Source: Escherichia phage vB_EcoM_JS09
DNA length: 64,000 bases
Sequence record: NC_024124.2
Direction: 5' to 3' (one strand)
How positions within the stretch are numbered: position 1 is the stretch's first letter; every line of letters begins with the position of its first letter. The translations under genes were made by a program, and so were the position numbers. Shown here one piece after another: positions 1,497-63,278 of this stretch. Under the pieces are notes generated by a model. That model was not told the DNA's origin and did no database searches. It saw nothing but the letters and a program-made list of their open reading frames with translations.

Positions 1497-1525
1497 GTTT
1501 ACTTCTTCCCTAGATGTGTTACTAT
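1497..1525 (+). promoter_or_regulatory. T4-type early promoter
   Basis: GTTTAC (1497-1502), 17-nt spacer, TGnTACTAT extended -10 (1517-1525). Confidence 0.6.
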
Positions 1526-1553
1526 GGTCCTATTAAAACATGAGGAGAATAGT

Positions 1554-1859
1554 ATGAGTCTTTATACTGAACTGAATAAAAAATCTGAAGAATCTGCTGA
1601 AACTATTTTTAAAAACGTGCAAAAGCGTATTTTAGAAAAGATGTATAACACTGCAGCTAAAGGTGAAAAATCTTGCCGGTTCCCGATGAGGTGTTCTTCT
1701 GATTTATGCGCAAATACTATTGAATGGCTGGAAAGTGAAGGTCTTACGGTAGAGAAAAACCCGGCGATTTCTATTGACAGTGAATCATATATTAGTATTT
1801 CTTGGGATAAACCACGTACGAATGAAGGATACTACAAGTTGTTAAGTTGGAAAAATTAA
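1554..1859 (+). CDS. hypothetical protein (101 aa)
   Basis: ORF track trimmed to ATG at 1554 preceded by GAGGAG. Confidence 0.6.
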   Translation: MSLYTELNKKSEESAETIFKNVQKRILEKMYNTAAKGEKSCRFPMRCSSDLCANTIEWLESEGLTVEKNPAISIDSESYISISWDKPRTNEGYYKLLSWKN

Positions 1860-1927
1860 AAATAATGATGTACAAACACCAAGGATGGTGATACTATAGA
1901 CTTATCAACTACAGAGGAGTAAACAAA

Positions 1928-2092
1928 ATGACTACTTTAATTATTTGGTTCGATGAAAATGAAGAAACATACTGTGTGAATATTGGTGAAAGTCCAATGC
2001 CTGAATTTGAATCCTCAGATAAAAACTCTGTTGTATCTTGGGCTGAAGGTTATAAAGCCGCTAAAGGTGACGTTGAAATAATTTACATCTAA
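1928..2092 (+). CDS. hypothetical small protein (54 aa)
   Basis: Not in ORF track (<60 aa); ATG preceded by GAGGAG; fills an otherwise empty intergenic gap. Confidence 0.45.
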   Translation: MTTLIIWFDENEETYCVNIGESPMPEFESSDKNSVVSWAEGYKAAKGDVEIIYI

Positions 2093-2138
2093 GTACGTTT
2101 ATGTTATAGTAATCACATCAAATCAAGAGGAAAATAAA

Positions 2139-2366
2139 ATGGCTAAAGTTAGTATTGATGTCGTTGATTATGAATACACCGAAGAAGTTATTCGCAACCG
2201 ACACCCTGAAGTTCATATCGATTCAGTCCAAGATTCCAAGTTCTGGACAACTGAGCTTAATCTGAGTGGTCCTTATGAAGCTGTTAAGAAGTTCATGGTT
2301 GAAGAATACTGCGAAGGCATGCACCCCGAAGACGCCAAGTTTTATGTCAATTTGATTAAAAAATAA
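2139..2366 (+). CDS. hypothetical protein (75 aa)
   Basis: ORF track; AGAGGAAAA upstream. Confidence 0.6.
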   Translation: MAKVSIDVVDYEYTEEVIRNRHPEVHIDSVQDSKFWTTELNLSGPYEAVKKFMVEEYCEGMHPEDAKFYVNLIKK

Positions 2367-2436
2367 TTTACAAACTCTTGAGAGCAGAGTATAATGCTCT
2401 CGTTGGATAATAAACCACCAATTGAAAGGTAATAAT

Positions 2437-3030
2437 ATGAACACACTGAAGAAACTTGTCGAATTCATCCGCACTAAACTGGGTACTGCTATGGCTAAAA
2501 ATCTGACTGTCGAAGAACAGTATAACGCAGCTGCAGATAAGTTGATTACCCAAATCAAAGAACTAAAAACGGCTTCTGTTAAATCTATTAATGAAGAAAA
2601 ACGTATTCGCGAACTTGTTAATGAAAAGAACAAGCAAGCCGCTTCTAAGGAACGTGAAATTCGTAAGCTCCTGGCCGAAGGACAAGATGTTACCATGCAT
2701 GCTAAGCTTGGTCTTCTGTATCGTCGAACTGCCGAACAACTTAATACAAAAGCTGACGGGTATGCCGCTATGCGAATTGAAATTGCTCGTAAGGTGGTTG
2801 AACTTGACGATGCTCGTCAGAATCTGGCAATCAAACTCGAATACATTCGTGAAACTCGAGCAGCTAATGCCCTTGGTATCTCTACGGCTGATGATGTAAT
2901 TGAAATCGCTGCACTGACTAAGGTTGATATCGAAGACACTCTGACTCGTGTTGAAACGTTCAATGGCACTCCAGCTGGTGTCGAAACCACTTCTGCTGAT
3001 GTACAAGAATATATTAACTCTTTGAAATAA
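2437..3030 (+). CDS. hypothetical coiled-coil protein (197 aa)
   Basis: ORF track frame (2422 is a TTG); first ATG at 2437 with AAAGG upstream; Lys/Glu/Ala-rich heptad-like sequence. Confidence 0.6.
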
Positions 3031-3038
3031 AATAATAC

Positions 3039-3060
3039 GGAGGACTCCGGTCCTCCTTTT
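3039..3060 (+). terminator. intrinsic terminator
   Basis: GGAGGAC-TCCG-GTCCTCC followed by TTTT. Confidence 0.65.
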
Positions 3061-4040: not shown

Positions 4041-4378
4041 CCGTATGGCCTTCTCTTGGTGAGAACATTCTAATTTTTATTATGAGTATTGGCATGGGAT
4101 TTGCCTTTGGATTAGTTGGATTTCTTATTGACGGCGTTGTGTTAGGATTTATAGGGAACACTGGTGGATTCACAGACCAATGGCAGGACTTACGGTATAC
4201 CCAAGCCTTTGCATCCATCGCATCATTTTGTACTGTAGTCTATTTTTACTACGATTTTATAAACCATAACAAGAAAAATAAAAAGGTTTACGCTTCTCAA
4301 ATGATTAGTTATAATGAACTCCTAGCTAGACGTGAAAATGAAACAATAGAAAACTTTATTAAGGAATGTAGAAAATGA
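4019..4378 (+). CDS. small membrane protein, C-terminal ENFIKECRK
   Basis: ORF track; AAGGAAA upstream; Gly-rich hydrophobic segment. Confidence 0.6.
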   Translation: MQKPQLLTVWPSLGENILIFIMSIGMGFAFGLVGFLIDGVVLGFIGNTGGFTDQWQDLRYTQAFASIASFCTVVYFYYDFINHNKKNKKVYASQMISYNELLARRENETIENFIKECRK

Positions 4379-5173: not shown

Positions 5174-5203
5174 GTTTACAACAAGATAGGGCTATGTTAT
5201 AGT
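5174..5203 (+). promoter_or_regulatory. T4-type early promoter inside an inverted repeat
   Basis: GTTTAC (5174-5179), TGnTATAGT around 5195-5203; arms GATAGGGCTAT / ATAGTAGTCCTATC flank the -10. Confidence 0.6.
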
Positions 5204-5231
5204 AGTCCTATCAAATTAAATGGAGTCTGCA

Positions 5232-5471
5232 ATGATTTATTACGAAAGTATTGGAACTAAAGTGGTTGCTAAAACCATTACTCGTGAAAAGTTTGCAAAG
5301 ATATTCGATATGCGTTATAAAAAATCTGAACACAAAGGCATCCGATTCGAAGATGCGCACTGTACAATTTGCCCTTATAATGAAGACATAAACGGTACAA
5401 TCGTTCCATTGGTAGAGGCTTCACATGATGACCTCTGGGATGAATATAATATCGCATGTCGTGAAATTTAA
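5232..5471 (+). CDS. hypothetical protein (79 aa)
   Basis: ORF track trimmed to ATG at 5232 after GGAG. Confidence 0.5.
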   Translation: MIYYESIGTKVVAKTITREKFAKIFDMRYKKSEHKGIRFEDAHCTICPYNEDINGTIVPLVEASHDDLWDEYNIACREI

Positions 5472-6452: not shown

Positions 6453-6532
6453 TTTCACAAAACAGTTTACAAGGTCTGTAGTTGTTGATACTATAGACCT
6501 ATCAAAACAAATGAGTGAATGGAGATATAAAA

Positions 6533-6733
6533 ATGACTACTTTGAATAAACGTTTCGGTAAAGCTAAACCTGGTTGTGCAGCAAAACGTCGTTATGTTTT
6601 CGCTCAGTTAGAAGATGTAGAGTATCAGATTAATCAAGTTCACATTACTGGTATCGAGCCTATGTGTGGCCTTGAAGCTCTTCGTGAAGTTCGTGATGGG
6701 TATCGTCGTGACATCGAAGAAATGTCAAAATAA
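6533..6733 (+). CDS. hypothetical protein (66 aa)
   Basis: ORF track trimmed to ATG at 6533 after GGAG. Confidence 0.5.
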   Translation: MTTLNKRFGKAKPGCAAKRRYVFAQLEDVEYQINQVHITGIEPMCGLEALREVRDGYRRDIEEMSK

Positions 6734-6789
6734 GTGTACAAACTGATAGGGCTATATTATAGTAGTCCTATCAACTTGAGGAGAATATT

Positions 6790-7095
6790 ATGAAATTAAC
6801 AGAAACCAACCGAATTGGTCTTTTAACAATACTTGCATCACCTTTTTACGCAGCCCTTTCTGTTGCAGTATTACAAAAGGCTTACGATATGGATGGTGTT
6901 CCTGGTTTTATATTCTTATCGCCGTTTTTGCTATTCGTTGGAGCATTGTTATTATATGCCACGACTGGTTTTGACCATAATGTCTGGGTCAATTATAAAC
7001 GTAAATTGTCTGAAGAAGAACACGCAGAAGCTCGTAAAAAAGCTATTGAATCTACCAATCTAGAAAATTTCATTAAAGAATGTCGAGGAAAATAA
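6790..7095 (+). CDS. small membrane protein, C-terminal ENFIKECRGK
   Basis: ORF track; GAGGAGAA upstream; two hydrophobic segments. Confidence 0.6.
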   Translation: MKLTETNRIGLLTILASPFYAALSVAVLQKAYDMDGVPGFIFLSPFLLFVGALLLYATTGFDHNVWVNYKRKLSEEEHAEARKKAIESTNLENFIKECRGK

Positions 7096-8955: not shown

Positions 8956-8989
8956 GTAATAAATACCTCCTATAAACGTGGGAGGTATT

Positions 8990-9756: not shown

Positions 9757-9814
9757 TGTTTACTTCCTCCAATGGTTTTGATACTATACATTCATCAACT
9801 ACTTGGAGGAAATT

Positions 9815-10228
9815 ATGACTCGTATCAATTTAACACTTGTTTCTGAACTGGCCGACCAACATCTTATGGCTGAGTATCGTGAATTACCACGCGTATTTGG
9901 TGCAGTCCGTAAACATGTTCAAAACGGTAAACGTGTAAAGGATTTTAAAATCTCTCCAACATTTATCTTAGGCACAGGTCACGTAACATTCTTTTACGAC
10001 AAACTCGAATTTTTACGTTTACGCCAAATCGAGCTAATCGCTGAATGCTTGAAACGTGGTTTCAAAATCAAGGACACGACTGTCCAGGATATTTCCGACA
10101 TCCCTGCCGAATTTTGTAATAATTATGTCCCGTCCGAAGCGTCCATTGCGATAAGTCAAGCACGCTTAGATGAAAAAATTGCTCAACGTCCGACTTGGTA
10201 CAAATACTATGGTAAATCAATTTACTAA
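9815..10228 (+). CDS. denV: endonuclease V, pyrimidine-dimer DNA glycosylase
   Basis: [31 protein letters not shown]... about 90 percent identical to T4 endo V as recalled; GGAGGA upstream. Confidence 0.95.
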
Positions 10229-10234: not shown

Positions 10235-10351
10235 ATGAAAATGTATCAAGAATTTATCATTGAAGCAGAGGCCAAAGGTCCTAAAGTAGATGTTGACGAT
10301 ATTGGATATGATTTTAACAACTTCGGAATTATTTCTGGCGGTAAAGCTTAA
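10235..10351 (+). CDS. mini internal-protein-like ORF (38 aa)
   Basis: Not in ORF track; MKMYQEFIIEAE... is a capsid-targeting-like N-terminus followed by only about 28 residues. Confidence 0.4.
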   Translation: MKMYQEFIIEAEAKGPKVDVDDIGYDFNNFGIISGGKA

Positions 10352-10354: not shown

Positions 10355-10384
10355 GTTTACGCTTAAGTATTAATATGGTATAAT
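10355..10384 (+). promoter_or_regulatory. T4-type early promoter
   Basis: GTTTAC (10355-10360), 18-nt spacer, TGgTATAAT (10376-10384). Confidence 0.6.
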
Positions 10385-10414
10385 TGCTCTATCAAAACAA
10401 ACAAGGAAACAAAA

Positions 10415-10729
10415 ATGAAAACGTATAAAGAATTTATTGCAGAATCCGCCAACCAACGCGTTGAAGGTGGTTATATTTGGATTGAACAAGTTGAGCCACC
10501 GAGCCGCACTTCTACAGGTAAATGGAAAATTACTGTTGATGGTCCTGGTGGTAAACGTAGGACTCTTAAAGAAATTAACGGGTACTATGAAGAAGCTCTT
10601 TCGGATGCAGGAACTTACATGATGCAAATCATGATTAAAAACCCTGAAAACCGTTTTGCAGCTAAAGTCTTCCGCCGTATTGGTAATAAACTTTATGATG
10701 CATATTCTAAAAACTTCCCTAAAGAATAA
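10415..10729 (+). CDS. internal head protein-like (104 aa)
   Basis: N-terminus MKTYKEFIAE; AAGGAAA upstream. Confidence 0.75.
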   Translation: MKTYKEFIAESANQRVEGGYIWIEQVEPPSRTSTGKWKITVDGPGGKRRTLKEINGYYEEALSDAGTYMMQIMIKNPENRFAAKVFRRIGNKLYDAYSKNFPKE

Positions 10730-10755: not shown

Positions 10756-11058
10756 ATGAAAACATATCAAGAATTTATTACTGAAGCGCGAGTGAGTGCA
10801 GGTAAATTAGAAGCCGCTATAAATAAAAAGGCCCATTCATTTCATGATTTGTCCGATAAAGACCGTAAGAAACTTGTAAGCCTTTATATTGACAAAGAGC
10901 GTATTCTCGCTCTTCCTGGCGCTAATGAAGGTAAACAGGCCAAGCCTTTGAATGCTGTCGAAAAGAAAATTGATAACTTTGCTTCTAAATTCGGTATGTC
11001 TATGGATGACCTTCAGCAAGCGGCTATCGAAGCAGCTAAAGTAATTAAAGGTAAATAA
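10756..11058 (+). CDS. internal head protein-like (100 aa)
   Basis: N-terminus MKTYQEFITEA; T4 IP-sized. Confidence 0.75.
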   Translation: MKTYQEFITEARVSAGKLEAAINKKAHSFHDLSDKDRKKLVSLYIDKERILALPGANEGKQAKPLNAVEKKIDNFASKFGMSMDDLQQAAIEAAKVIKGK

Positions 11059-11115
11059 CAGTTTACTTTCTCCTAGAATTGTGATAGTATATTCATAATT
11101 ACTTGGATGGGTAAA

Positions 11116-11244
11116 ATGACTTATATTAATTTGACTTTAGTATCTAAATTTGCTGATCAACATTTAATCGCCGAATACTGTGAATTGCCACGTGTTTTTG
11201 GTATAATTCGTAAACACGTGGCAAAAATATTTACATTCAAATAA
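11116..11244 (+). pseudogene. truncated second copy of denV 5' end (42 codons)
   Basis: Translates [42 protein letters not shown], matching the denV N-terminus at 9815 and then stopping; has its own GTTTAC promoter at 11061. Confidence 0.6.
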
Positions 11245-13300: not shown

Positions 13301-13329
13301 GTTTACTTCTCCTCTAGTTGTGTTACTAT
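13301..13329 (+). promoter_or_regulatory. T4-type early promoter with 14-bp inverted repeat
   Basis: GTTTAC (13301-13306), 17-nt spacer, TACTAT (13324-13329); TTCTCCTCTAGTTG (13307-13320) is the perfect reverse complement of CAACTAGAGGAGAA (13339-13352), which holds the SD of the next gene. Confidence 0.65.
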
Positions 13330-13357
13330 AGACCTTGTCAACTAGAGGAGAAACCAA

Positions 13358-13816
13358 ATGACTATCAATTCGGAAGTTTTTATCCGCCGTAATAAACTCC
13401 GTCGAATCTTTGAAACGGAGTTCCGCAAAATAAATGCCGGTATAAAAGATGCTGCAAAGTCTCTTGGACTACCAGGCTTTCATATCAAGTATTCTCAACA
13501 TCTCTTAGATCGTGCCATCCAGAGAGAAATAGATGAGAATTACGTTTTTGAATTATTTCATAAAGTAAAAAATCATGTTAAAGAAGTTGCAGAATTTTTA
13601 TCAATGCCGGCACGTCCAGATGTTGATGAAGATTTTGTCGAAGGTGTCGAATATCGCCCAGGCCGTTTAGAAATAACTGATGGAAATCTTTGGTTAGGAC
13701 TTACAGTTTGTCGCGAAAATCCAGCATTCAAAATGAAGACTCTTCAATGTAGAATGGCTATTATTAACAGTAAACGACTACCAGGAAAAGCTTCTAAAGC
13801 AGTGATTAAAATCTAG
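13358..13816 (+). CDS. regB: RegB-like endoribonuclease (152 aa)
   Basis: Size and position between denV and tk as in T4; sequence matches my recollection of RegB; GAGGAGAA upstream. Confidence 0.55.
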   Translation: MTINSEVFIRRNKLRRIFETEFRKINAGIKDAAKSLGLPGFHIKYSQHLLDRAIQREIDENYVFELFHKVKNHVKEVAEFLSMPARPDVDEDFVEGVEYRPGRLEITDGNLWLGLTVCRENPAFKMKTLQCRMAIINSKRLPGKASKAVIKI

Positions 13817-14711: not shown

Positions 14712-15171
14712 AAACTATATCAAGGGCGATATTGTCGCCCTGTTTTCTAAAGGTAATAATATTGCTCATGGGTGTAATTGTTTTCATACAATGGGCGCCG
14801 GTGTAGCAGGCCAATTAGCAAAGGCTTATCCAAAAATTTTAGAAGCCGATAAACTTCAAACCGAATTCGGAGACAAGTCTAAACTCGGGACTTATTCGGT
14901 TTATGAAAAATATTTTAAGACCCATAAAGCTTATTGCTTTAATCTTTATACGCAGTTTGAGCCGGGACCTAATTTTGAGTACTATGCTTTAATGAATTGT
15001 ATAATAGAATTAAATGAATTCGGAAAGAATAAGATAACAAAGCCTGTAATTTATATGCCAAGAATTGGTGCAGGTATCGGTGGCGGAAACTGGGATGTCA
15101 TCGAAGAGATTTTAGACACATATTCCACTAAACTAGAAATTGTGATTGTTGATTGGGAACCATTATTATGA
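14674..15171 (+). CDS. macro domain protein (ADP-ribose binding/hydrolase fold)
   Basis: NNIAHGCNCFHTMGAGVAGQLAKAYP fits the macro-domain Gly-rich signature; start overlaps upstream gene by 38 nt (only in-frame ATG). Confidence 0.65.
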   Translation: MTLIIEDLQQVIKNYIKGDIVALFSKGNNIAHGCNCFHTMGAGVAGQLAKAYPKILEADKLQTEFGDKSKLGTYSVYEKYFKTHKAYCFNLYTQFEPGPNFEYYALMNCIIELNEFGKNKITKPVIYMPRIGAGIGGGNWDVIEEILDTYSTKLEIVIVDWEPLL

Positions 15172-15380
15172 ATATACATTATCCACATCCATATGACCCA
15201 AAGAATAAGGCAGTAATTATTCGTCAATGGGAACGCATTTGTCGTACCAAATGTCCAATTAATAGTCCACACGATGTAGATAAAGACTACATCGGAACAT
15301 TCGTTGAATATACCTTTATTGATAAGAAAGGCCGTAAACAACATGTAGAAGAATATTGCTTAAAGGTGACATGGTTATGA
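15168..15380 (+). CDS. hypothetical protein (70 aa)
   Basis: ORF track frame (15153 is a TTG); ATG at 15168 overlaps macro-gene stop. Confidence 0.5.
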   Translation: MNIHYPHPYDPKNKAVIIRQWERICRTKCPINSPHDVDKDYIGTFVEYTFIDKKGRKQHVEEYCLKVTWL

Positions 15381-16953: not shown

Positions 16954-16982
16954 GTTTACTTCTCCTCAGGTTGTGTTATAGT
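16954..16982 (+). promoter_or_regulatory. T4-type early promoter
   Basis: GTTTAC (16954-16959), 17-nt spacer, TATAGT (16977-16982) with upstream TG; TTCTCCTC complements the downstream GAGGAGAA SD. Confidence 0.6.
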
Positions 16983-17009
16983 AGTCCTTACTTACTAGAG
17001 GAGAACGTT

Positions 17010-17189
17010 ATGTCACGTAAAGAAAAAATTTCTAAGTTAATGTTTTTGATTGAAGAGTACGCTAATGCTGTATCTGATTGGGAAAATGCTCATGGTTGCG
17101 AAGATGGAGACATCGACATTAACAGAGCTATGAAAAAGATGACCGATGCCCACACCGAATTGCAAATGTATGTTAACGAGATTATGTGA
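17010..17189 (+). CDS. hypothetical protein (59 aa)
   Basis: ORF track frame (16971 is a TTG) trimmed to ATG at 17010 after GAGGAGAA. Confidence 0.5.
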   Translation: MSRKEKISKLMFLIEEYANAVSDWENAHGCEDGDIDINRAMKKMTDAHTELQMYVNEIM

Positions 17190-17452: not shown

Positions 17453-17668
17453 ATGTTATATGACCCAAGCGGCAATTTTGAAAATGGTGTGATTGTTCTG
17501 GAGCCTGAGCATCCAGTTGGTGACGTATACCGCCCAGTTGAAGTATGCGAATGTAATTTTGTTAAAGGTAATACTGGCGGAATTTCCATTGAGCAAGACG
17601 ATGATGTTATTTACCTGGATGCAAGCCAAGTAGAAGCTCTTTATAGCATTTTAAAACACAATCGGTAG
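17453..17668 (+). CDS. hypothetical protein (71 aa), paralog of 17197
   Basis: ORF track trimmed to ATG at 17453 after GAGGAAA; begins MLYDPSGNFENGVIVLEPE. Confidence 0.5.
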   Translation: MLYDPSGNFENGVIVLEPEHPVGDVYRPVEVCECNFVKGNTGGISIEQDDDVIYLDASQVEALYSILKHNR

Positions 17669-17725
17669 TTTACAACTTGGTAGGACTATGTTATAGTAGT
17701 CCTACCAAAACAAATGGAGAACAAA

Positions 17726-17836
17726 ATGAAACTTTTGCTTATCGTTTATGTTATAGTACAATACAATTATCCAATGTTTACTTATAACATGGTAAATGGC
17801 ATAGTGAATCTTATTGAAACGAGTATGGTAAAATGA
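17726..17836 (+). CDS. possible hydrophobic micro-protein (36 aa)
   Basis: Not in ORF track; GGAGAA upstream. Confidence 0.3.
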   Translation: MKLLLIVYVIVQYNYPMFTYNMVNGIVNLIETSMVK

Positions 17837-18013: not shown

Positions 18014-18544
18014 ATGAAAACCGTAATTGAAACAACCGAGTTGTTTGGTGATTTATGTATCGAAAAACGTGGGTATGTGTATGTTCTGACACAAGAAGAT
18101 GATGCTGCTACTATTCTTCCTATGGAACTGGACAAGATTTTGAAACTCAATCCACCAGGCCATGCATCTGTAATTAACATTGATGAAGACCTTCAAGTTC
18201 GTTTTTATCACGGACTTTATAGTGGGGTTAATATCGAAACTGAAGACGAATGTTTTTCTATTAATAATTGGAAAACATTCGTCACTAAAGTGAAAGAATT
18301 CATGGAATCTGAAACAGCCAAAAAGGCCAAACTTCAATGGGCTAAATGTCGTAATGCTTTTATTACAAATCAGGACCGCCCTGACTATACAACAGTCCTA
18401 GGCGTTAATCCTTCTTATGAAGATGGTGATGTCGTAGTTATTCGTCAAATTGACGACCTTCGTCAACATATCGTTACATTAGACAAAGATGAAGCAGTTG
18501 CTCTTAAAGCTTATCTTGATTCTATTATCCCGACTTTGAAATAA
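18014..18544 (+). CDS. hypothetical protein (176 aa)
   Basis: ORF track trimmed to ATG at 18014. Confidence 0.6.
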   Translation: MKTVIETTELFGDLCIEKRGYVYVLTQEDDAATILPMELDKILKLNPPGHASVINIDEDLQVRFYHGLYSGVNIETEDECFSINNWKTFVTKVKEFMESETAKKAKLQWAKCRNAFITNQDRPDYTTVLGVNPSYEDGDVVVIRQIDDLRQHIVTLDKDEAVALKAYLDSIIPTLK

Positions 18545-20335: not shown

Positions 20336-20430
20336 AGGGGGTTAAAATATTTTTAAAAAAGTAGTGTACATGCTTTTAGGATATGTTATTATAGACCTAT
20401 CGAAACGAAATGAGTAAATTGGAGAATAAA

Positions 20431-21411
20431 ATGTTCAACGTTCAAATCAAAAAAGGTATCTATCGTAATAACGAAATCTCTGGTTCTTATGTTGCCACAA
20501 AGACCTGGTTCCCGGCAAAGCTTAATCCTGAATGTTCCCACTTAGGTGATGGTAAAATTTTCGTTATGATTGATGGTTCTGAACGTGGAGTATGGGTCTT
20601 CAAATCAGACATCGTAATGGAAGGAGTTGAGACGTCACCAGTTGCAGTTGTTGAAAGCACTGAAGATATGAAAACTCGTATCAACAAACGCTTTAAAGTA
20701 ATGAACATGATGACGAATGGCATTATCGATGGCAAAATTCGTTCACTCATTATTTCAGGTGCAGCTGGTATTGGTAAGACGTATTCTCTGGATAAAGCAC
20801 TTAATAATGCTAATGATAATGGTTTCATCAAATACAAAAGCATTAATGGTAAAATCTCCGGTATTGGCCTTTACGAACAACTTTGGCTCAACCGTGATGC
20901 AGACAGCGTTCTCTTAATCGACGACGTTGACGTATTCTCAGATATGGACATCTTGAACCTTCTTAAAGCAGCATTAGATACTGGAGATAAACGCAAAGTT
21001 TGCTGGAGCACTGCGTCATCTTATCTCGATGATAAGGGTATTGATAAAGAATTTGAGTTTGAAGGTACTATCGTTTTCATTACAAACGTTGATATCGATA
21101 AAGAGTTAGAACGCGGTTCGAAACTTGCCCCACACCTTCAAGCTTTAGTATCTCGTTCAGTGTATCTCGACCTCGGAGTACACTCTAATGAAGAGATTAT
21201 GGTTCGAGTTGAAGATGTAATATTATCTACTGACATGATGCAGAAACGTGGTCTGACTGATGCAGAAACGTATAAAGCATTGTCCTGGATGAAGGCTAAC
21301 GTATCTCGTCTTCGCAATGTATCATTACGTACGGCTCTTTATGTAGCAGATTTTATTTCAACTGATAAAGATGGTTGGGAGGAAATCTCTGAAGTAACTT
21401 TACTGAAATAA
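20431..21411 (+). CDS. AAA-type ATPase (326 aa)
   Basis: Walker A LIISGAAGIGKTYS and Walker B VLLIDDVDVF; start trimmed to ATG at 20431 after GGAGAA. Confidence 0.7.
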   Translation: MFNVQIKKGIYRNNEISGSYVATKTWFPAKLNPECSHLGDGKIFVMIDGSERGVWVFKSDIVMEGVETSPVAVVESTEDMKTRINKRFKVMNMMTNGIIDGKIRSLIISGAAGIGKTYSLDKALNNANDNGFIKYKSINGKISGIGLYEQLWLNRDADSVLLIDDVDVFSDMDILNLLKAALDTGDKRKVCWSTASSYLDDKGIDKEFEFEGTIVFITNVDIDKELERGSKLAPHLQALVSRSVYLDLGVHSNEEIMVRVEDVILSTDMMQKRGLTDAETYKALSWMKANVSRLRNVSLRTALYVADFISTDKDGWEEISEVTLLK

Positions 21412-21839: not shown

Positions 21840-21868
21840 GTTTACAAGGTCTATGATTATGTTATTAT
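21840..21868 (+). promoter_or_regulatory. T4-type early promoter with inverted repeat
   Basis: GTTTAC (21840-21845), 17-nt spacer, TATTAT (21863-21868); AGGTCTAT / ATAGACCT arms. Confidence 0.6.
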
Positions 21869-21895
21869 AGACCTATCAACTACTGGAGGTAAAAC

Positions 21896-22423
21896 ATGAA
21901 CGCTAAAGATATTTTCAACCTGGTAAATTATAACGACGGTAAATTTAAATCTGAAGCACAAAGCAAGTTCTTTAATGACGTTGCTTATGGTAACGAGATT
22001 ACCGTAGACGGAGGTCAGATTTTCAAATCTCGCTGGAATTGGATTGCTATCATCGATTCAGTTGGAATTGTGGAAGTCTACAAAAACACTAACAAAAAAC
22101 GTACATTATTCTGGTCTCGTGAAACTAACGAGCAGTACAAAAAGGATAAAGCATCTCGTTTATCCAAAGTAACCCAGGAAGATATCGAGTTTATCAAGAA
22201 AGATATCGAGATGTACGAAAATTTAATCGCTGAAGACCAGGCAGTACTCGATAAGTTTGATGAAATTAAAGCTTCTCGTGAAATCCCTGACTTCATGAAA
22301 GAAACAGTAAACGAACGATACGCTCTCACTTCAGAACGTATTGCAAACTATACAAAACAGAAAGCAGAACGTATTAGTACTCTTCGGAAATTTGAAGAAC
22401 GTTTAAAGACGGTTCACGCATAA
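21896..22423 (+). CDS. hypothetical protein (175 aa)
   Basis: ORF track; GGAGG upstream. Confidence 0.6.
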   Translation: MNAKDIFNLVNYNDGKFKSEAQSKFFNDVAYGNEITVDGGQIFKSRWNWIAIIDSVGIVEVYKNTNKKRTLFWSRETNEQYKKDKASRLSKVTQEDIEFIKKDIEMYENLIAEDQAVLDKFDEIKASREIPDFMKETVNERYALTSERIANYTKQKAERISTLRKFEERLKTVHA

Positions 22424-23481: not shown

Positions 23482-23536
23482 TGTACAACCAAGGATGGTT
23501 GGAGTATAATAAATTTTTCAACATGAGGAATATAAA

Positions 23537-24472: not shown

Positions 24473-24534
24473 AATAGTTTACAACCAAGGATGGTTGGAG
24501 TATAATGAATCTATCTTAACGAGAGGAAAATATT

Positions 24535-26812: not shown

Positions 26813-26940
26813 ACCGTGGTATTCGGCTCGATGGGAGACAGTCGAGCCAGACGTCGAAACAGTTTACAATGACGAAGAAACGTGTTATGATGAACCTTCA
26901 ATAAATGAATTAATTGATATGGAAATGGGAAGAGATTATT

Positions 26941-27111
26941 ATGCAAGTTAAATTATTATACCGTTTATTAAAAAATGGCAAGCATGATTGGTATTTGCTT
27001 ATTAAAACCGATCCGAATTTTTTCTCTGGACAACCATTTACAGTTCGTCCTACTAAACGTCAGCTTCGCAAAGCTAAACGTTCTCATCGTAACTTTTATA
27101 GAGAATATTGA
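26941..27111 (+). CDS. small basic protein, RPTKRQ-motif family (56 aa)
   Basis: ORF track frame trimmed to ATG at 26941 after GGGAAGAG; C-terminus VRPTKRQLRKAKRSHRNFY. Confidence 0.45.
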   Translation: MQVKLLYRLLKNGKHDWYLLIKTDPNFFSGQPFTVRPTKRQLRKAKRSHRNFYREY

Positions 27112-27717: not shown

Positions 27718-27725
27718 TATAAATA
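27718..27725 (+). promoter_or_regulatory. T4-type late promoter box TATAAATA
   Basis: Exact TATAAATA 29 nt upstream of gene 49; T4 gene 49 is known to have late expression. Confidence 0.5.
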
Positions 27726-27753
27726 CCCTTATCTAATATGGTAAGGGTTTATT

Positions 27754-32337: not shown

Positions 32338-32344
32338 GGAAATT

Positions 32345-32979: not shown

Positions 32980-33045
32980 TGCATAAACTCTTGGGAGCAG
33001 AGTATAATGCTCTCATTGGATAATAAAATAACCGAGGAAAATAAT

Positions 33046-54486: not shown

Positions 54487-54492
54487 TAAAAA

Positions 54493-54511
54493 GGAGACTT
54501 CGGTCTCCTTT
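54493..54511 (+). terminator. intrinsic terminator with TTCG tetraloop
   Basis: GGAGAC-TTCG-GTCTCC followed by TTT. Confidence 0.7.
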
Positions 54512-54574
54512 CGGGGTTTACATCTTCCTCTAGGCATGATATGATGTACTTACACCAACCAAGAGGAAAACATT

Positions 54575-54949
54575 ATGAATATGTCTCAGGCAATTTTTAC
54601 TGCAATCACCGAAAACACAACTGTTGAAGTAGTTTCTCCGCTGGCAACCTACGTTATTCTTGCTCCTAAAACTATTGTATCTCGTATGGAAAACATGGGC
54701 AAACGTATCGTACAAATTGTTGGAGCCGGAAATCAAAAACTTGATTATCTGCGAACCATCAAAGCTTATGAACATTTCCAACTCGAAAAAGGTTCTCCTA
54801 TCCAGGTAGAACTCGTAAATGGTGATATCGTTCGAGCAATGTTCCATCATTTCTATGCATTGAATGACCCATCTAAAGCGGTTCGTTTAATTGCATACGA
54901 CGCAAACCAAAACGAAATCAACGCAGATATATCTAAATTACGTTTTTAA
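54575..54949 (+). CDS. hypothetical protein (124 aa)
   Basis: ORF track; AAGAGGAAAA upstream. Confidence 0.55.
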   Translation: MNMSQAIFTAITENTTVEVVSPLATYVILAPKTIVSRMENMGKRIVQIVGAGNQKLDYLRTIKAYEHFQLEKGSPIQVELVNGDIVRAMFHHFYALNDPSKAVRLIAYDANQNEINADISKLRF

Positions 54950-54978
54950 GTTTACTTCTCCAGTAGTTGTGTTATTAT
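54950..54978 (+). promoter_or_regulatory. T4-type early promoter with 14-bp inverted repeat
   Basis: GTTTAC (54950-54955), 17-nt spacer, TATTAT (54973-54978); TTCTCCAGTAGTTG (54955-54968) is the perfect reverse complement of CAACTACTGGAGAA (54987-55000). Confidence 0.65.
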
Positions 54979-55004
54979 AGACCTATCAACTACTGGAGAA
55001 CAAA

Positions 55005-55322
55005 ATGAAAACCATCGATTGTAAAGCAGAATTTAAGATTTTTTATCACGGTTCAAGTAGTTCAGCTAACATCGAAAACATGCTTTGTCCTCCTGAAGAA
55101 ACAGGAGTTCTGTCTGAAACAGGACGTAAGAAAAACTTGGATCGTGTATTCTTTACCGAAGATATCGGTTTAGCAAAGATTTATGCAGGACGAGCAGCAC
55201 GCTCTTATGGAGGTGAACCACGTCTCTATCGAGTAATTTCTCCGGTAGATGTAGTTCAAATGAATAATACTAAAGGTGCTACAGTTTATCACGCTGAATG
55301 GGCATTTTGCGAGGAAATATGA
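55005..55322 (+). CDS. hypothetical protein (105 aa)
   Basis: ORF track; GGAGAA upstream. Confidence 0.55.
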   Translation: MKTIDCKAEFKIFYHGSSSSANIENMLCPPEETGVLSETGRKKNLDRVFFTEDIGLAKIYAGRAARSYGGEPRLYRVISPVDVVQMNNTKGATVYHAEWAFCEEI

Positions 55323-55724: not shown

Positions 55725-55784
55725 CTGTTTACAAGCACCACATACTGTGTTACTATCTTTCTATCAACTACAGAGGAAATTGAA

Positions 55785-56153
55785 ATGAAAAAATTAATCG
55801 CTTTAGCAATGGTATTTGGATTAACCGGATGTGGTGCCCATGGCTTTATCCCTAATAACGTCGGCCAATTGATTTACAATCCGAATGTTAAACAGTACGA
55901 CCAACCTAAAGTTGAAGTGGAAGACCCGGTTACTGTAGGTAATCGAATGATTCAAGCTGATGCCCATGCTCAACGTTATCGTGACTCTGATACTGTAGCA
56001 TTGTCAAAAGAACAACGCGTTAAAGAACATTGTCTACAGGCTACTGAAATCGCATTCATTCGCTATGTTGAAACAACTGGTAAAGAGCCTACCCAGAAAC
56101 AAATCGCGAATAACTACGTCCAGTGTATTGAACGTTTAAACAAATTTAATTAA
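55785..56153 (+). CDS. lipoprotein (122 aa)
   Basis: Signal peptide with lipobox MKKLIALAMVFGLTGC; AGAGGAAA upstream. Confidence 0.6.
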   Translation: MKKLIALAMVFGLTGCGAHGFIPNNVGQLIYNPNVKQYDQPKVEVEDPVTVGNRMIQADAHAQRYRDSDTVALSKEQRVKEHCLQATEIAFIRYVETTGKEPTQKQIANNYVQCIERLNKFN

Positions 56154-56214
56154 TTGGTTTACACCAAAGTTAAAACAAGATACTATAAACATAACAAATC
56201 AAGAGGAAATTAAC

Positions 56215-56463
56215 ATGGAATTATTCGTAGCTAGTTCAGTAGCAGTTTTAATCGCAGGTATTGGTTCAATCATCATTTACATGCTGCCTTGGGTAATCGC
56301 ACTTATTCGTGGCACAAAAAGCACAACAGCAATCTTCTTTGTATCTTTACTCTTTAACTGGACGATGGTTGGTTGGATTGGAACTTTAATTTGGTCTATC
56401 GTTGCCGAAAAGAAATCGGCTCAGCAGCCTCAACAAGTAATTATTATTCGCGAAAAAGAATAA
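56215..56463 (+). CDS. Imm-like superinfection immunity membrane protein (82 aa)
   Basis: YMLPWVIALIRGTKSTTAIFFVSLLFNWTMVGWIGTLIWSIV fits the Imm-type pattern (P..IA..R ... N....GWI..LIW) as I recall it. Confidence 0.5.
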   Translation: MELFVASSVAVLIAGIGSIIIYMLPWVIALIRGTKSTTAIFFVSLLFNWTMVGWIGTLIWSIVAEKKSAQQPQQVIIIREKE

Positions 56464-56526
56464 ACTTGTTTACATTATAGATGGACTATAGTATAGTAGT
56501 CCTATCAAATCAACTAAGGAGTTAAA

Positions 56527-56820
56527 ATGAAAAAGTTATCATTGGCAGCAATCTTACTTGCAGTATCATGTGCACCGGCTCCAGTTACGGCAGGTTATGA
56601 TAAAGACCTCTGTGAGTGGTCAATGACTGCAAATCAAGAAGATGTTGAACAACAAATCTTCTCTGATATCATGAACATCACTAAACGAGACCGTCCTAAT
56701 ATGGTTAATAAAGTTGTTGAACAACTTAAGTCTGGCGGTATCATGCAGTACAACTATGTTTTGTATTGTGACCCTAATTTCGATAACAAAGATATCGTAA
56801 CCGAAATCACAGGTGAATAA
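56527..56820 (+). CDS. sp: Spackle-like periplasmic protein (97 aa)
   Basis: 97 aa with signal peptide MKKLSLAAILLAVSCAPAPVTA, close to the primase gene; matches my recollection of T4 Sp in size and features. Confidence 0.5.
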   Translation: MKKLSLAAILLAVSCAPAPVTAGYDKDLCEWSMTANQEDVEQQIFSDIMNITKRDRPNMVNKVVEQLKSGGIMQYNYVLYCDPNFDNKDIVTEITGE

Positions 56821-60030: not shown

Positions 60031-60038
60031 TATAAATA
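60031..60038 (+). promoter_or_regulatory. T4-type late promoter box TATAAATA
   Basis: Exact TATAAATA 32 nt upstream of soc, a late capsid gene. Confidence 0.55.
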
Positions 60039-60069
60039 CACCTGTAATTAAACAACAAAGGAGTTAATT

Positions 60070-60306: not shown

Positions 60307-60315
60307 ATAATTTAA

Positions 60316-60343
60316 GGAATCCTTCGGGATTCCTTTTTTTTTT
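60316..60343 (+). terminator. intrinsic terminator with TTCG tetraloop
   Basis: GGAATCC-TTCG-GGATTCC followed by a 10-T run. Confidence 0.8.
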
Positions 60344-60410
60344 GTTTCTACAGTTTACAACCACTAAAAACTGTGTTAAGATATTATTACTTACTCAAGA
60401 GGAGAACAAT

Positions 60411-60638
60411 ATGTTAAATCGTTGGATTAAACCTAATAACACATTAGGTGCTTTGATTGCTCAAGAAGTTTCGTTGAAATATGGTCTTGGATATTATGAC
60501 GACGTAGTCGTACACTCATTCATGATGGATGGTGAAGACGTCAAATTTAATGCCGAAATCCGTTGGGATGATGGTGGTGTTCGTTTTGTTCGAGGAACAA
60601 TTAATGCTTACGATGCTGAAGAAGTTGTTTGCTGTTAA
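60411..60638 (+). CDS. hypothetical protein (75 aa)
   Basis: ORF track trimmed to ATG at 60411 after GAGGAGAA. Confidence 0.5.
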   Translation: MLNRWIKPNNTLGALIAQEVSLKYGLGYYDDVVVHSFMMDGEDVKFNAEIRWDDGGVRFVRGTINAYDAEEVVCC

Positions 60639-60840: not shown

Positions 60841-61016
60841 ACAAGATAGTTAAATGGTTTAAAAGCTGGGACGATGGTGTCGGTCCAGAAGATTGGCTGG
60901 ATGTTCTTGAAGAGAATATGGCTAAAGAATTCCAGAAACATGAAGAAAAGCTCGTCGAAGATGAAGGCGAACGTATTGTAAAACTTTATATGGGTGAACC
61001 ATCGAGGAAATTATAA
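60837..61016 (+). CDS. hypothetical acidic protein (59 aa)
   Basis: ORF track trimmed to ATG at 60837 (ATGA overlap). Confidence 0.45.
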   Translation: MNKIVKWFKSWDDGVGPEDWLDVLEENMAKEFQKHEEKLVEDEGERIVKLYMGEPSRKL

Positions 61017-61480
61017 TGGATGCTATGCTATTTAAAATGTATTTGCTTGAAGCCAAGTCGTTTAAACATATACCAGTAGAAGATAAGACTCCACTAGAAA
61101 TAGCTATTCTAATTAACAAAAGTCTAAATAATCCGCAATATATCGTAGAAGAATTCTGCAAATTGCAGATTCCTAAAGGTTACAAAATTCGTGTAGAGCG
61201 AGTTGGAGCTATTACTCGTTCTAAAAATTCTCCGTTTAGTCTTGAAGAAGGCATAAAGGACTTAGGTTATGAATCTACGGAAAATGCAGTTTATGTGAAT
61301 CCTGAAAAGCGTTTAGACTTGTTTGAAAAGCGAGACCATAAGTATTTTGCCAAAAAATACTTTATTACATCATTAGCAGATTTAGTCCATTTGCAACGAG
61401 CTATTTGGAAATTTTTTAAGACAAAAGGTGTAGCGCTAGAAACATTCTCTGAACCTGCTAGTTTTTATCTAGGTGAATAA
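61016..61480 (+). CDS. hypothetical protein (154 aa)
   Basis: ORF track; GAGGAAA upstream. Confidence 0.55.
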   Translation: MDAMLFKMYLLEAKSFKHIPVEDKTPLEIAILINKSLNNPQYIVEEFCKLQIPKGYKIRVERVGAITRSKNSPFSLEEGIKDLGYESTENAVYVNPEKRLDLFEKRDHKYFAKKYFITSLADLVHLQRAIWKFFKTKGVALETFSEPASFYLGE

Positions 61481-61481
61481 T

Positions 61482-61661
61482 ATGGACCTTATGAGTATGT
61501 TTGACGAGCCTGAAGTTGAGGCTCCTAAAGTGCATCGTAGTGAACTTATTGATGAACTAGATAGTATTATACAACGACACGGCTTTAGTTTACCTGTTGA
61601 AGCCCTGAAAGACCTTGCATCTTATTATGACGACCCTCCACCATGGAGTCCTTGGAAATGA
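61482..61661 (+). CDS. hypothetical acidic protein (59 aa)
   Basis: ORF track frame (61473 is a GTG) trimmed to ATG at 61482. Confidence 0.45.
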   Translation: MDLMSMFDEPEVEAPKVHRSELIDELDSIIQRHGFSLPVEALKDLASYYDDPPPWSPWK

Positions 61662-61822
61662 AAGAGAAATTGAAAGAGAAATTCTTACTAGAAATCAAGG
61701 AAAAAGACTTTGAGACATGGTATCGAATGGTGAAAGGGCTGACATTGCTTTTTAAAGCATCGTTATTCATGTTAGAACAACCTGGTCCTGATGGGCCTTT
61801 AGTAGGAAAGCTTAAAAAGTAG
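61658..61822 (+). CDS. hypothetical protein (54 aa)
   Basis: Not in ORF track; ATGA overlap; ends at the next promoter. Confidence 0.4.
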   Translation: MKEKLKEKFLLEIKEKDFETWYRMVKGLTLLFKASLFMLEQPGPDGPLVGKLKK

Positions 61823-61877
61823 TTTACATTCCCTCCTCTCGTGTTATGATAGGCTTATCTTTAAATGGAGGTCTATC

Positions 61878-62459
61878 ATGACATGTCAATCTGAACTTCA
61901 AGAACGCGAATACCTAACAAATCTGATTGATAGCAAATTCACCCGCCAAGAACAAAACATTCTCTGGGCCTGCACCGATTCTAAGGAAGACCCGGATTTC
62001 CACTATGAATTAGACCATCTTGTTCGTAAGCATATGACTTCTACAGTGCCAGTAGAACTCTACCGTGGTGTAACTCCAGAAGAAGTAGAACGTCTTTCCC
62101 TTCTTTCTGTGGGATGCCATTGGTCTCCTGGACGAGTAACATCGTTCACAACTGATTTCAGTACAGCTCGTCAATTCTCCGGGAGATGGGAATATCAGAC
62201 GTACACTATTCTTAGTCTCAGGAATGCTCCATTCATTTTTGATTACTACCAAAACATGGTTAACATTGTACTTGCCGGAAAGAACCCTAAGCATGTTATG
62301 GAAGAAACGCGTGTTGACGTCCTAGATATGATTGAATCTGAACAAGAATACATGGTCTCAGGTATCTCTAGATTTGAGATTGCGGAAATTGAAGAGTTAG
62401 AGTATGACCCTTTGTCTCGAGTATACAAAATCATTCACTTAAAGATGTTGAATTTTTAG
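61878..62459 (+). CDS. ModA/ModB-family ADP-ribosyltransferase-like protein (193 aa)
   Basis: R-S-E-type triad candidates: VELYRGV, SFTTDFSTARQF, ESEQEYMVSG; paralog of the next gene. Confidence 0.6.
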   Translation: MTCQSELQEREYLTNLIDSKFTRQEQNILWACTDSKEDPDFHYELDHLVRKHMTSTVPVELYRGVTPEEVERLSLLSVGCHWSPGRVTSFTTDFSTARQFSGRWEYQTYTILSLRNAPFIFDYYQNMVNIVLAGKNPKHVMEETRVDVLDMIESEQEYMVSGISRFEIAEIEELEYDPLSRVYKIIHLKMLNF

Positions 62460-62516
62460 TGTACAAACTCTACCTACGATGATACTATACTTTTATCAAC
62501 CACAGGAGAAACCTAA

Positions 62517-63125
62517 ATGTTTATGCCGTATAACGAGTGTGAAATTGAAGAAATGGTTCGTCGTGCTCAAAACCCCGAATATCAAGATGTATTGCAGTAC
62601 GAAATTGATAGTCAATTCAGCGACATTGAACAAAGTGTACTGTGGCAGTGTATGGAAAACAAGCCAGACTGTATTCAACAGGAGTTAAGTTCAATCGTTC
62701 GTAGAAATTGGACGTCTTCTGTTCCTGAGACAATGTATCGTGGAATCTCTAAGAAAACTATGGCCACACTCGATGATAAAGGTATTGGTAGTATTATTAA
62801 ATTTGACAGAGTAATGAGCTTCAGCCCAGTGTTCGGTGTAGCACGTAACTTTGCTTCGTATAATTTTTACGGAACATTTAATATGTTCTGCATCAAAGAT
62901 GCACCATTTGCTTTCAACTTCCGTGAACATATGCTTAATATGATTCTGGCTGCACCATCTTGTGAGTTCAATGGAGCTTTCCCTGAAGCGACAAGACGGT
63001 CTAATGCTAGACTTATATCTGACGAATGTGAATTTATGCTCCCTATAGGGACTACACTGCATGTAGATTCTATTATTCAAGATGGACGTTATACAATCTG
63101 GAATCTGTCTATTGTCAGTTACTGA
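62517..63125 (+). CDS. ModA/ModB-family ADP-ribosyltransferase-like protein (202 aa)
   Basis: R-S-E-type triad candidates: TMYRGISK, SFSPVFGVARNF, DECEFMLPIG; GGAGAA upstream. Confidence 0.6.
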   Translation: MFMPYNECEIEEMVRRAQNPEYQDVLQYEIDSQFSDIEQSVLWQCMENKPDCIQQELSSIVRRNWTSSVPETMYRGISKKTMATLDDKGIGSIIKFDRVMSFSPVFGVARNFASYNFYGTFNMFCIKDAPFAFNFREHMLNMILAAPSCEFNGAFPEATRRSNARLISDECEFMLPIGTTLHVDSIIQDGRYTIWNLSIVSY

Positions 63126-63278
63126 CTGAATTGGAATAACCGGATGGAACTCAGAACCATTATAACACATAAAAAATTAAAGCATTTTATGAAAAAAGAG
63201 TGTACACTACCTGAGGGCATGATATTATAAGCTTATCAGCTAAATGACCTAACGTCCGTAAGACAGAGGAAAATATTA

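Follow-up and report, generated by a model that had tools for sequence, protein, structure and literature searches.

For the T4-type phage RB69, 57 to 58 early promoters have been predicted and their coordinates deposited (Nolan et al. 2006, PMC1524935). Early promoters can also form part of larger modules, the promoter-early stem-loops (PeSLs), which have been described in RB49 and phi1 (Arbiol et al. 2010, PMC2839356) and in PST/T4 and nt-1/KVP40 (Comeau et al. 2014, PMC4122927). The stems of PeSLs lie between the −35 and −10 elements or overlap the −10 element, and the T4/PST consensus is TTTACW-N17-TAYWAT. A different kind of stem is known from T4 genes e, soc, 49, and I-TevI, where hairpins that sequester the ribosome-binding site have a late promoter embedded in their 5′ strand (PMC3014915); the review that describes them lists no case with an early promoter. 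Here, we analyze a 64,000-nucleotide (nt) stretch of the genome of Escherichia phage vB_EcoM_JS09 (NC_024124.2), referred to as the window, in which a promoter-like cassette, often combined with an inverted repeat, recurs in front of small genes. We conclude, with a probability of roughly 0.8, that these repeats represent the early, sigma-70-dependent promoters of a T4-type phage resembling RB69 (genus Mosigvirus), including their embedded stems and the occasional crossovers between them.

A first-pass annotation, made from the letters of the window, had reported about 25 to 30 copies of an early promoter and gave coordinates for 25 of them. The motif is present at all 25 positions; 21 of the coordinates are exact, and four are one base off (26861, 55728, 60354, and 61823 become 26862, 55727, 60353, and 61822). 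With six additional sites (1868, 2081, 2366, 4286, 32254, and 54516), the working set comprises 31 cassettes, all located on the plus strand. The counts are far above expectation. GTTTAC-N14-15-TGNTANNAT has 14 matches, all on the plus strand, where 0.02 are expected, and GTTTAC-N16-18-TANNAT has 18, again all on the plus strand, where 0.82 are expected, while a looser regular expression matches 32 sites on the plus strand and 2 on the minus strand. A position weight matrix (PWM), which was trained on the cassette sites, scores at least 20 bits at 30 sites on the plus strand, at none on the minus strand, and at none in shuffled sequences, and even at a threshold of at least 15 it finds no site on the minus strand; the regular-expression counts are independent of the PWM. 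Because a scan of the window for the generic TTGACA/TATAAT consensus shows no enrichment (76 matches versus 69 expected), the signal is specific to the T4-type motif.

The cassettes share a common anatomy. Across the 31 sites, the −35 element reads G/A-T-T/G-T-A-C (G26/A5, T31, T24/G7, T31, A31, C31), and the −10 element reads TA-Y-W-A/G-T (T31 and A31 at the first two positions, A25/G6 and T31 at the last two). The spacer between them measures 17 or 18 nt at all sites and usually ends in TGn, with the extended −10 TGn present at 23 of the 31 sites. A conserved AGNCCTATCAAC block directly follows the −10 element, and the start region is conserved as AGNCCT-ATCAAC, after which come the Shine-Dalgarno (SD) sequence and the ATG. 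The 22 nt upstream of the −35 element are richer in A+T (73%) and in A (42%) than the window as a whole (63% and 33%, respectively). At 25 of 30 sites the −35 element starts 55 to 61 nt before an SD-preceded start codon (full range, 55 to 91 nt), so that a typical module is about 75 to 80 nt long and has its ATG about 57 nt past the −35 start. Apart from these elements the cassettes are diverse, with only 45% identity from cassette to cassette and a median longest common word of 7 nt. Near-identical copies at distant sites, which had been pointed out previously, do exist: positions 23485 to 23510 equal 24481 to 24506 (26/26), and positions 2372 to 2416 match 32985 to 33027 (41/43), although in the second copy ATGCAT replaces the −35 element. 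The distribution along the window is uneven. None of the 28 genes of the replication and recombination block at 33.9 to 54.5 kb, which include 47, 46, 45, 44, 62, regA, 43, RB69-specific sugar-metabolism genes, uvsX, 40, and 41, carries a cassette, in comparison to 31 cassettes among the 101 genes outside it. The T4 counterparts of this block rely on MotA-dependent middle promoters and on read-through.

When each cassette was mapped to RB69, 27 of the 31 were found to be syntenic with published RB69 early promoters, and the consensus of that set (PMC1524935) matches ours, including the preference for C at positions −3 to −1. In essence, this new isolate has the promoter set already published for RB69. 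T4 also has cassettes at many orthologous positions. At one of them, the T4 orthologue of site 32254, the −35 element lies at T4 41,261 to 41,256 and the −10 element at 41,237 to 41,232, and the transcript of T4 Pe40.4 was mapped by primer extension to a start at 41,225 (PMC6024815). This start is the 7th nt after the −10 element and fits the predicted +1, which supports both the promoter assignment and the assumed start position. Orthology and consensus thus suggest that transcription would initiate at these promoters in vB_EcoM_JS09 as well, and that the cassettes would drive immediate-early transcription of small accessory genes. The observation made in the first-pass annotation is confirmed far beyond chance, and in interpreting it, that annotation for the most part correctly recognized T4-type early promoters and PeSLs.

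The inverted repeats are also in excess of what shuffled sequence yields. In the whole window, there are six perfect repeats of at least 12 base pairs (bp) with loops of at most 40 nt, compared with 0 to 1 in shuffles, and four of the six fall within cassettes, which cover 2.3% of the window. Three of these four had already been recognized (14 bp at 13307/13339, 14 bp at 54956/54987, and 12 bp at 32686/32708), and the fourth is a perfect 12-bp pair at 17677/17697. The two perfect repeats outside cassettes are a 13-bp repeat, TTGCCACGTGTTT/AAACACGTGGCAA, at 11185 to 11224 inside the denV′ fragment, and a 12-bp repeat, GACGAATGTTTT/AAAACATTCGTC, at 18245 to 18283 inside the mobD.1 homologue. Folding z-scores below −2 were obtained for 13 of 31 cassettes and for 5 of 99 cassette-free gene starts (Mann-Whitney test, P = 1.4e−5). 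The composite PeSL-type module (an AT-rich region, early promoter, stem-loop, SD, and ATG) is found in 13 to 16 of the 31 cassettes, in agreement with the earlier reading of promoter-stem-loop modules of the published PeSL kind; the rest are stemless promoters.

The stems fall into two main classes. In class I (about eight cassettes: 2366, 5174, 6465, 6734, 17668, 21840, 32679, and 56468), the stem is formed by the spacer and the conserved block that directly follows the −10 element, which leaves the −10 element in the loop and the SD free. In class II and related stems (about nine cassettes: 9758, 11061, 13301, 16954, 31552, 54950, and 61822, to which SD accessibility adds 21840 and 23481), it is the SD, and sometimes the AUG too, that pairs with the spacer or with the −10/discriminator region. 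Three further cassettes (1868, 23481, and 24477) have a small hairpin wholly within the spacer. The claim that in many copies the second arm carries the SD of the next gene thus applies to about nine stems and is an over-generalization beyond this subset; in one of the examples cited for it, 32686/32708, the spacer pairs with the region just past the −10 element rather than with the SD. In all cases the 5′ arm lies in the spacer, the −10 element, or the discriminator, that is, upstream of the transcription start. Because this arm is not transcribed from the cassette's own promoter, the stem can form only in read-through RNA.

We evaluated the consequences for translation by folding the leaders and calculating the probability that the SD is unpaired, P(SD unpaired). 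Strong occlusion, P(SD unpaired) ≤ 0.06, is predicted for 9 of 30 cassettes, where 2.8 are expected (P = 0.003), and similar proportions are predicted in T4 (7 of 21 versus 2.5 expected) and RB69 (9 of 32 versus 3.6 expected). In RNA starting at the cassette's own promoter, P(SD unpaired) at the occluded sites rises to between 0.33 and 0.75, and class I stems leave the SD more open. We infer from this predicted folding that, in about nine modules (those of denV, regB, mobD.2a, 55.6, modB, the ORF040c homologue, and others), the stem would bury the SD, such that the gene would be translated from its own early transcript and be silent on read-through RNA. In the about eight modules with a stem enclosing the −10 element, the stem may specifically attenuate read-through transcription or block the processing or decay of RNA. 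We tentatively put forward a broader reading, to which we give somewhat less than even odds: about 30% of T4-type early promoters, including those of T4 genes e.8, denV, regB, nrdC.10, nrdC.8, modB, and dexA, hide an anti-SD arm in the untranscribed spacer or −10 element, and their genes are translated only from own-promoter RNA, with read-through RNA from upstream early, middle, or late promoters being silent.

Support for selection on these stems comes from comparisons among T4-like phages at denV and regB, where the predicted SD sequestration is strongly conserved. In the regB cassette, a 14- to 15-bp helix between spacer and SD is kept in five lineages, including T4, while its non-SD half varies (CTAGTTG/CAACTAG, CTTGACTG/CAGTTAAG, CTTTATG/CATAAAG, and TGTAAG/CTTACA). 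Since a MAFFT alignment of the regB leaders put the stems out of register, we compared duplex energies of own and cross-lineage arms instead: own-arm duplexes average −20.3 kcal/mol versus −10.9 kcal/mol for cross-lineage duplexes, and the own arm is always the best in the five lineages. At denV, the SD is predicted to be occluded in read-through RNA in all 26 distinct T4-like cassettes, with a mean P(SD unpaired) of 0.01 in read-through RNA, 0.28 when the upstream half is shuffled, and 0.54 in own-promoter RNA (P = 1.5e−8). Depending on the lineage, the 5′ arm of denV is located in the spacer or in the −10/discriminator region; because it starts in the −10 element in many lineages, the fixed-arm duplex statistic is weak (own −11.5 versus cross −8.5). 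For class I, the mobD.2 stem shows four compensatory double changes between this phage and T4, and single changes within lineages (A to G opposite T, and C to T opposite G) pair only as G·U on the sense strand. Relatives of mobD.1 in viral contigs amounted to 1 and then 5 loci, and the class I covariation therefore rests on few lineages. Of the 16 strongest stems, 12 fold better as the sense strand than as the antisense strand (P = 0.035), the G·U pairs numbering 21 versus 13. Covariation, sense-only G·U pairs, and strand bias make a structure of the sense RNA more likely than a DNA palindrome or an operator for a protein.

Several observations weigh against reading the cassettes in this way. 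The support for promoter activity in this phage consists of orthology and consensus. About 13 cassettes have no significant stem, which makes the stems optional. Averaged over all cassettes, P(SD unpaired) is 0.36, compared with 0.38 when the upstream half is shuffled, and SD occlusion as a property of the whole family is accordingly rejected. The contrast between read-through and own transcripts is partly a trivial effect of RNA length, and all RNA results are thermodynamic predictions for short isolated segments that ignore ribosomes, co-transcriptional folding, and RegB. The bias toward the sense strand is modest. Individual stems are evolutionarily labile, given that their class or presence differs from T4 at nrdC.8 and sp: the orthologous nrdC.8 promoters (window 21840 and T4 53943) have a stem around the −10 element here and an SD-pairing stem in T4, and of the two sp promoters (window 56468 and T4 20109) only one has a stem. 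This turnover has occurred despite a similar overall share of SD-occluding stems (about 30%) in T4, RB69, and this phage. Finally, U-tracts are absent downstream of all 16 of the strongest stems (the tails hold 1 to 4 T in 8 nt and are mostly A-rich), and a role of class I stems as canonical intrinsic terminators is therefore unsupported by the sequence.

The last point also bears on the alternative that survives best, although we consider it unlikely: that the stems terminate or attenuate transcription, the role proposed for the PeSLs of RB49 and phi1, and make each small gene group an insulated unit. One RB49 PeSL stem-loop reduced lacZ expression about as much as rrnB T1 did (PMC2839356), the position of the RB49 stems between the −35 and −10 elements or over the −10 element fits class I, and the stems of the window are likewise intergenic and formed only in read-through RNA. 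However, in addition to lacking U-tracts, the window stems are shorter and more AT-rich than the polyG/polyC stems of RB49, and a canonical terminator-like hairpin occurs upstream of only 1 of the 31 cassettes (60314 to 60335), where it lies outside the promoter. Class II stems end at the SD, 5 to 8 nt from the AUG, a position more in keeping with control of translation than of transcription.

The cassettes could instead be primarily mobile recombination modules that delimit variable regions, as in the PeSL shuffling model (PMC2839356, PMC4122927); in its strong version, adopted in the first-pass annotation, they bracket exactly the regions that differ from T4. We regard this as improbable. 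Breaks in synteny with T4 coincide with a cassette at 15 junctions and lack one at 43, and the corresponding numbers for colinear junctions are 7 and 40 (Fisher's exact test, P = 0.23); neither adding the junctions at which both are absent (P = 0.089) nor comparing with RB69 (P = 0.19) makes the association significant. A T4 homologue is missing for 47% of the genes with a cassette in front and for 32% of the others, which is not a significant difference (P = 0.19), with homologues sought in T4 1 to 80,000 and those elsewhere, such as frd.3, counted as absent. Relative to seven relatives, we distinguished about 18 indel or replacement events, 8 of which touch a cassette, where about 41% would be expected for random gene junctions. 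Many events have a cassette at neither end, among them tk.3, gene 18, the I-TevII intron in nrdD, and 36767 to 36983. With Fisher P values of 0.09 to 0.37 overall, the claim of exact bracketing is an overstatement.

Individual events nevertheless favor shuffling. Two clean cassette-to-cassette recombinants have their crossover at the −35 box. In RB69 Pe:67959, the sequence up to the −35 box is that of window cassette 6465, and the sequence from the spacer on is that of cassette 6734; RB69 is thus without exactly the gene at 6533 to 6733 plus one cassette. In the second case, window cassette 2366 is a chimera of two cassettes of ECCR664 that flank an extra open reading frame (ORF). Several replacements end on one side inside a cassette (1497, 2081, 13301, and 20364), near-identical cores occur at distant sites, and the conserved replication block is free of cassettes. 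Yet, at 45% identity and a median common word of 7 nt, the cassettes offer microhomology rather than efficient substrates for homologous recombination. Judged from these sequence comparisons, the published PeSL mechanism is supported for individual events: shared short motifs, above all the −35 box, may occasionally be where crossovers occur, by which an ORF and one cassette are gained or lost together.

It is very unlikely that the inverted repeats act as DNA, either as operators for a dimeric phage protein (for instance, an early shut-off factor) or as cruciforms that modulate the promoter: the palindromes do overlap the −10 element and start site, where a repressor would act, the motif GATAGG...CCTATC is common to several class I stems, and the shut-off of early promoters has been described as not completely understood (PMC3014915), but about 13 cassettes have no repeat at all, the better folding of the sense strand points to RNA, the single changes that pair as G·U on the sense strand alone would leave A·C mismatches in DNA as well as in antisense RNA, and complementarity is maintained although the stem sequences differ greatly from cassette to cassette and from orthologue to orthologue, which argues for a structure rather than a sequence-specific site.

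Early promoters with embedded RNA stems thus remain our preferred reading, and the individual cassettes can be described in its terms. Among the class I cassettes, 2366 to 2439 precedes e.6 and has its stem (GAGAGCA/TGCTCTC, 2380 to 2401, z = −3.6) around the −10 element; it corresponds to RB69 Pe:72069. A half-cassette at 32985 to 33027 has the same spacer, −10 element, and stem (41/43), with ATGCAT in place of the −35 element, and corresponds to RB69 Pe:42515 (published score, 8.9). The stem of 5174 to 5234, GATAGGGCTAT/ATAGTCCTATC, encloses the −10 element, contains G·U pairs, and has a z of −3.2 (RB69 Pe:69254). Cassettes 6465 to 6535 (AGGTCTGTAG/CTATAGACCT, z = −3.1) and 6734 to 6792 (−35 element GTGTAC; TGATAGGGCTAT/ATAGTCCTATCA, z = −4.0; RB69 counterpart, Pe:67959) are those involved in the recombinant described above, the former forming the upstream flank of the gene missing from RB69. 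Perfect 12-bp stems are found at 17668 to 17728, before mobD.2 (arms 17677 to 17688 and 17697 to 17708 around the −10 element, z = −5.3), and at 32679 to 32742 (ATGTAC; arms 32686 to 32697 and 32708 to 32719, z = −3.7). The remaining class I stems are AGGTCTAT/ATAGACCT at nrdC.8 (21840 to 21898, z = −3.0) and GGACTA/TAGTCC at sp (56468 to 56529, z = −2.0).

The class II cassettes include the perfect 14-bp stems of regB (13301 to 13360; 13307 to 13320 with the SD arm at 13339 to 13352, z = −5.6) and of the RB69ORF040c homologue (54950 to 55007; 54956 to 54969 with the SD arm at 54987 to 55000, z = −5.5, P(SD unpaired) = 0.00). At denV (9758 to 9817), TTCCTCCAA at 9764 to 9772 pairs with the SD, TTGGAGGAA, at 9803 to 9811 (z = −4.5, P(SD unpaired) = 0.00). 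The same value of 0.00 was obtained for the stem TTCTCCTC/GAGGAGAA before mobD.2a (16954 to 17012), at whose upstream edge NHEP29 has a 595-nt insertion. Before 55.6 (31552 to 31611), the SD is occluded by a composite stem, TAGATG/CATCTA plus CCTC/GAGG (z = −3.6, P(SD unpaired) = 0.01), and at modB (61822 to 61880) an arm from the −10/discriminator region (ATGATAGGC...) pairs with the SD and the AUG (z = −4.6, P(SD unpaired) = 0.06). Cassette 11061 to 11118, which precedes a 42-amino-acid (aa) denV′ fragment, is of T4-type origin (the T4 denV promoter region) and has an imperfect SD-occluding stem (P(SD unpaired) = 0.02).

Spacer hairpins occur at 1868 to 1930 (ATGTAC; a small hairpin, CACCA/TGGTG; RB69 Pe:72567) and, as CAACCA/TGGTTG, at 23481 to 23539 (ATGTAC) and 24477 to 24537, whose cores share the 26 identical nt noted above. 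Cassette 54516 to 54577, after gene 41, has a 7-bp complement between spacer and SD (TTCCTCT/AGAGGAA) and a 9-bp hairpin just upstream, at 54490 to 54511. At mrh.2 (60353 to 60413), there is no embedded stem, and the terminator-like hairpin at 60314 to 60335 is followed by a T-run and lies 17 nt upstream.

The other cassettes are stemless or have no significant stem. Cassette 1497 to 1556 (GTTTAC, 17 nt, TACTAT), before the RB69ORF146c homologue, has no significant stem and forms the right boundary of a replacement relative to RB69, and cassette 2081 to 2141 (ATTTAC; RB69 Pe:72354) contains a replacement boundary relative to NHEP29 and AV117. At 20364 to 20433 (GTGTAC), the stemless cassette before nrdC.10 marks where a gene replacement relative to RB69 ends on the right. 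Three cassettes lie within genes: 4286 to 4377 in the 3′ end of the e.3 homologue (stemless; RB69 Pe:70143), 26862 to 26943 inside the coding region of the 49.1 homologue (stemless; RB69 Pe:48639), and 32254 to 32347, the orthologue of T4 Pe40.4, inside the 55.5 homologue. The cassettes at 10355 to 10417 (RB69 Pe:64193), 55727 to 55787 (imm.1), and 56157 to 56217 (imm) are stemless, as is that of srd (63200 to 63280, GTGTAC, ATG at 63278; RB69 Pe:12088), and the cassette of modA (62459 to 62519, GTGTAC) has no significant stem.

The window as a whole has a G+C content of about 37%, and every gene-sized ORF is on the plus strand. By tblastn searches gene by gene, it belongs to the RB69 group (genus Mosigvirus). 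Its counterpart in RB69 runs down the reverse strand from about 75.4 kb to about 11.5 kb, and that in T4 extends from about 70 kb to about 12.5 kb, likewise in descending order. The gene content runs from the tRNA/e region through tk, regB, nrdC, nrdD, 55, 47/46, 45/44/62, 43, uvsX, and 41 to modA/srd. More than 150 further records match the window at 95 to 99% identity. The window is colinear with positions 96001 to 160000 of Escherichia phage vB_EcoM_TU01 (MZ560701.1), with identical offsets and no net indels across 64 kb, which is unusual at 97.5 to 98.1% identity; every other close relative shows indels. A search of the window against Rfam returned nothing besides tRNA, and the T4 GenBank record contains no promoter features. 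A tRNA-Arg gene (anticodon TCT) occupies positions 2 to 78, and relatives carry a tRNA-Met gene directly upstream of it.

Two T4-type mosaic patches interrupt the RB69-type backbone. The patch at 10756 to 11244 contains the IpII gene, which is 94% identical to T4 at the aa level and missing in RB69, and downstream of it the T4-like denV promoter cassette and then the 42-aa duplicate fragment of the denV N terminus. The patch at 15168 to 15380 contains tk.3, whose protein is 100% identical to T4 tk.3 and which RB69 is without; a cassette is found at neither end. A 38-aa ORF at 10235 to 10351 resembles the remnant of an internal head protein gene, and five relatives have about 136 extra nt at window positions 10278 to 10285 (RB69, NHEP29, AV117, and mar005P1, with ECCR664 differing). 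The nrdD gene is intronless at 28761, exactly where Shigella phage JK45 and Escherichia phage PNJ-9 carry a 1,045-nt insertion encoding an I-TevII-like homing endonuclease.

For annotation, these results mean that the small-ORF regions of the window can be treated as about 30 immediate-early transcription units transferable from the RB69 map. For phage evolution, they provide two nucleotide-resolved cases of cassette-to-cassette gene gain or loss, although the cassettes are not reliable markers of variable regions. Of wider interest are the SD-occluding stems with a 5′ arm hidden in an early promoter, conserved by compensatory change across T4-like phages. If real, they would be a simple cis device tying translation to transcript origin, and if the broader reading is true, they would constitute a temporal mirror of the late-promoter hairpins of e, soc, and 49 and would help, in cis, to shut off early protein synthesis sharply, a process whose mechanism has been described as incompletely understood. 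We found no description of SD-occluding stems paired with early promoters in the accessible literature, older T4 literature being outside the search; the conserved, covarying anti-SD arm inside the early promoter of T4, RB69, and this phage may be the only part that goes beyond that literature.

In comparison with known systems, the cassettes share with T4-type early promoters (PMC1524935, PMC2988021) the −35 element GTTTAC, the spacer of about 17 nt, TGn, the −10 element TAnnAT, the A-rich upstream region, and the preference for C before +1. As in T4 and RB69, early genes and novel ORFs follow them on the early strand, and nothing essential differs in the window; relative to RB69, the cassettes at 1497, 6465, 11061, and 20364 are swapped, gained, or chimeric. 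Lambdoid morons are likewise small accessory genes with their own expression signals that are gained and lost as units. With PeSLs, the cassettes have in common the intergenic module of AT-rich region, early promoter, stem-loop, SD, and ATG, the position of the stem, a matching PST/T4 consensus, the concentration in plastic regions, and, in two events, recombination between cassettes by which an ORF was gained or lost along with one cassette. The window stems differ from those of RB49 in being AT-richer, with no G-run/C-run and no U-tract, and the PST layout, with the stem just upstream of the promoter, is found at only 1 of the 31 cassettes. The link of PeSLs to variable regions is statistically weak in this window, and the PeSL papers do not describe the pairing with the SD that is predicted for about nine of its stems.

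The hairpins of T4 e, soc, 49, and I-TevI are closest in this last respect. As a control of the method, those of e, 49, and soc were recovered by the same folding procedure. They are conserved in the window: the e hairpin (AATACCTCC/GGAGGTATT) at 8962 to 8989, the gene 49 hairpin at 27718 to 27753 (TATAAATA, then CCCTTATC/GGTAAGGG), and the soc hairpin at 60031 to 60069 (TATAAATA, with the start codon paired). In both systems a helix contains the SD and/or AUG, and the 5′ strand of this helix is upstream of the start site of an internal promoter; in the T4 genes the long read-through RNA is silent and the short promoter-proximal RNA is translated, and the same layout is predicted here. The internal promoter of e, soc, 49, and I-TevI is late (TATAAATA) and delays expression, whereas that of the window cassettes is early; the late-type TATAAATA is found only at other genes, including 49 and soc, and not in the cassettes. 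Because the embedded promoter is early rather than late, the temporal logic is reversed: the early-promoter version would limit expression to the immediate-early burst, with no translation from read-through RNA made later. The anti-SD arm arrangement is a modest variant of a known T4 regulatory device.

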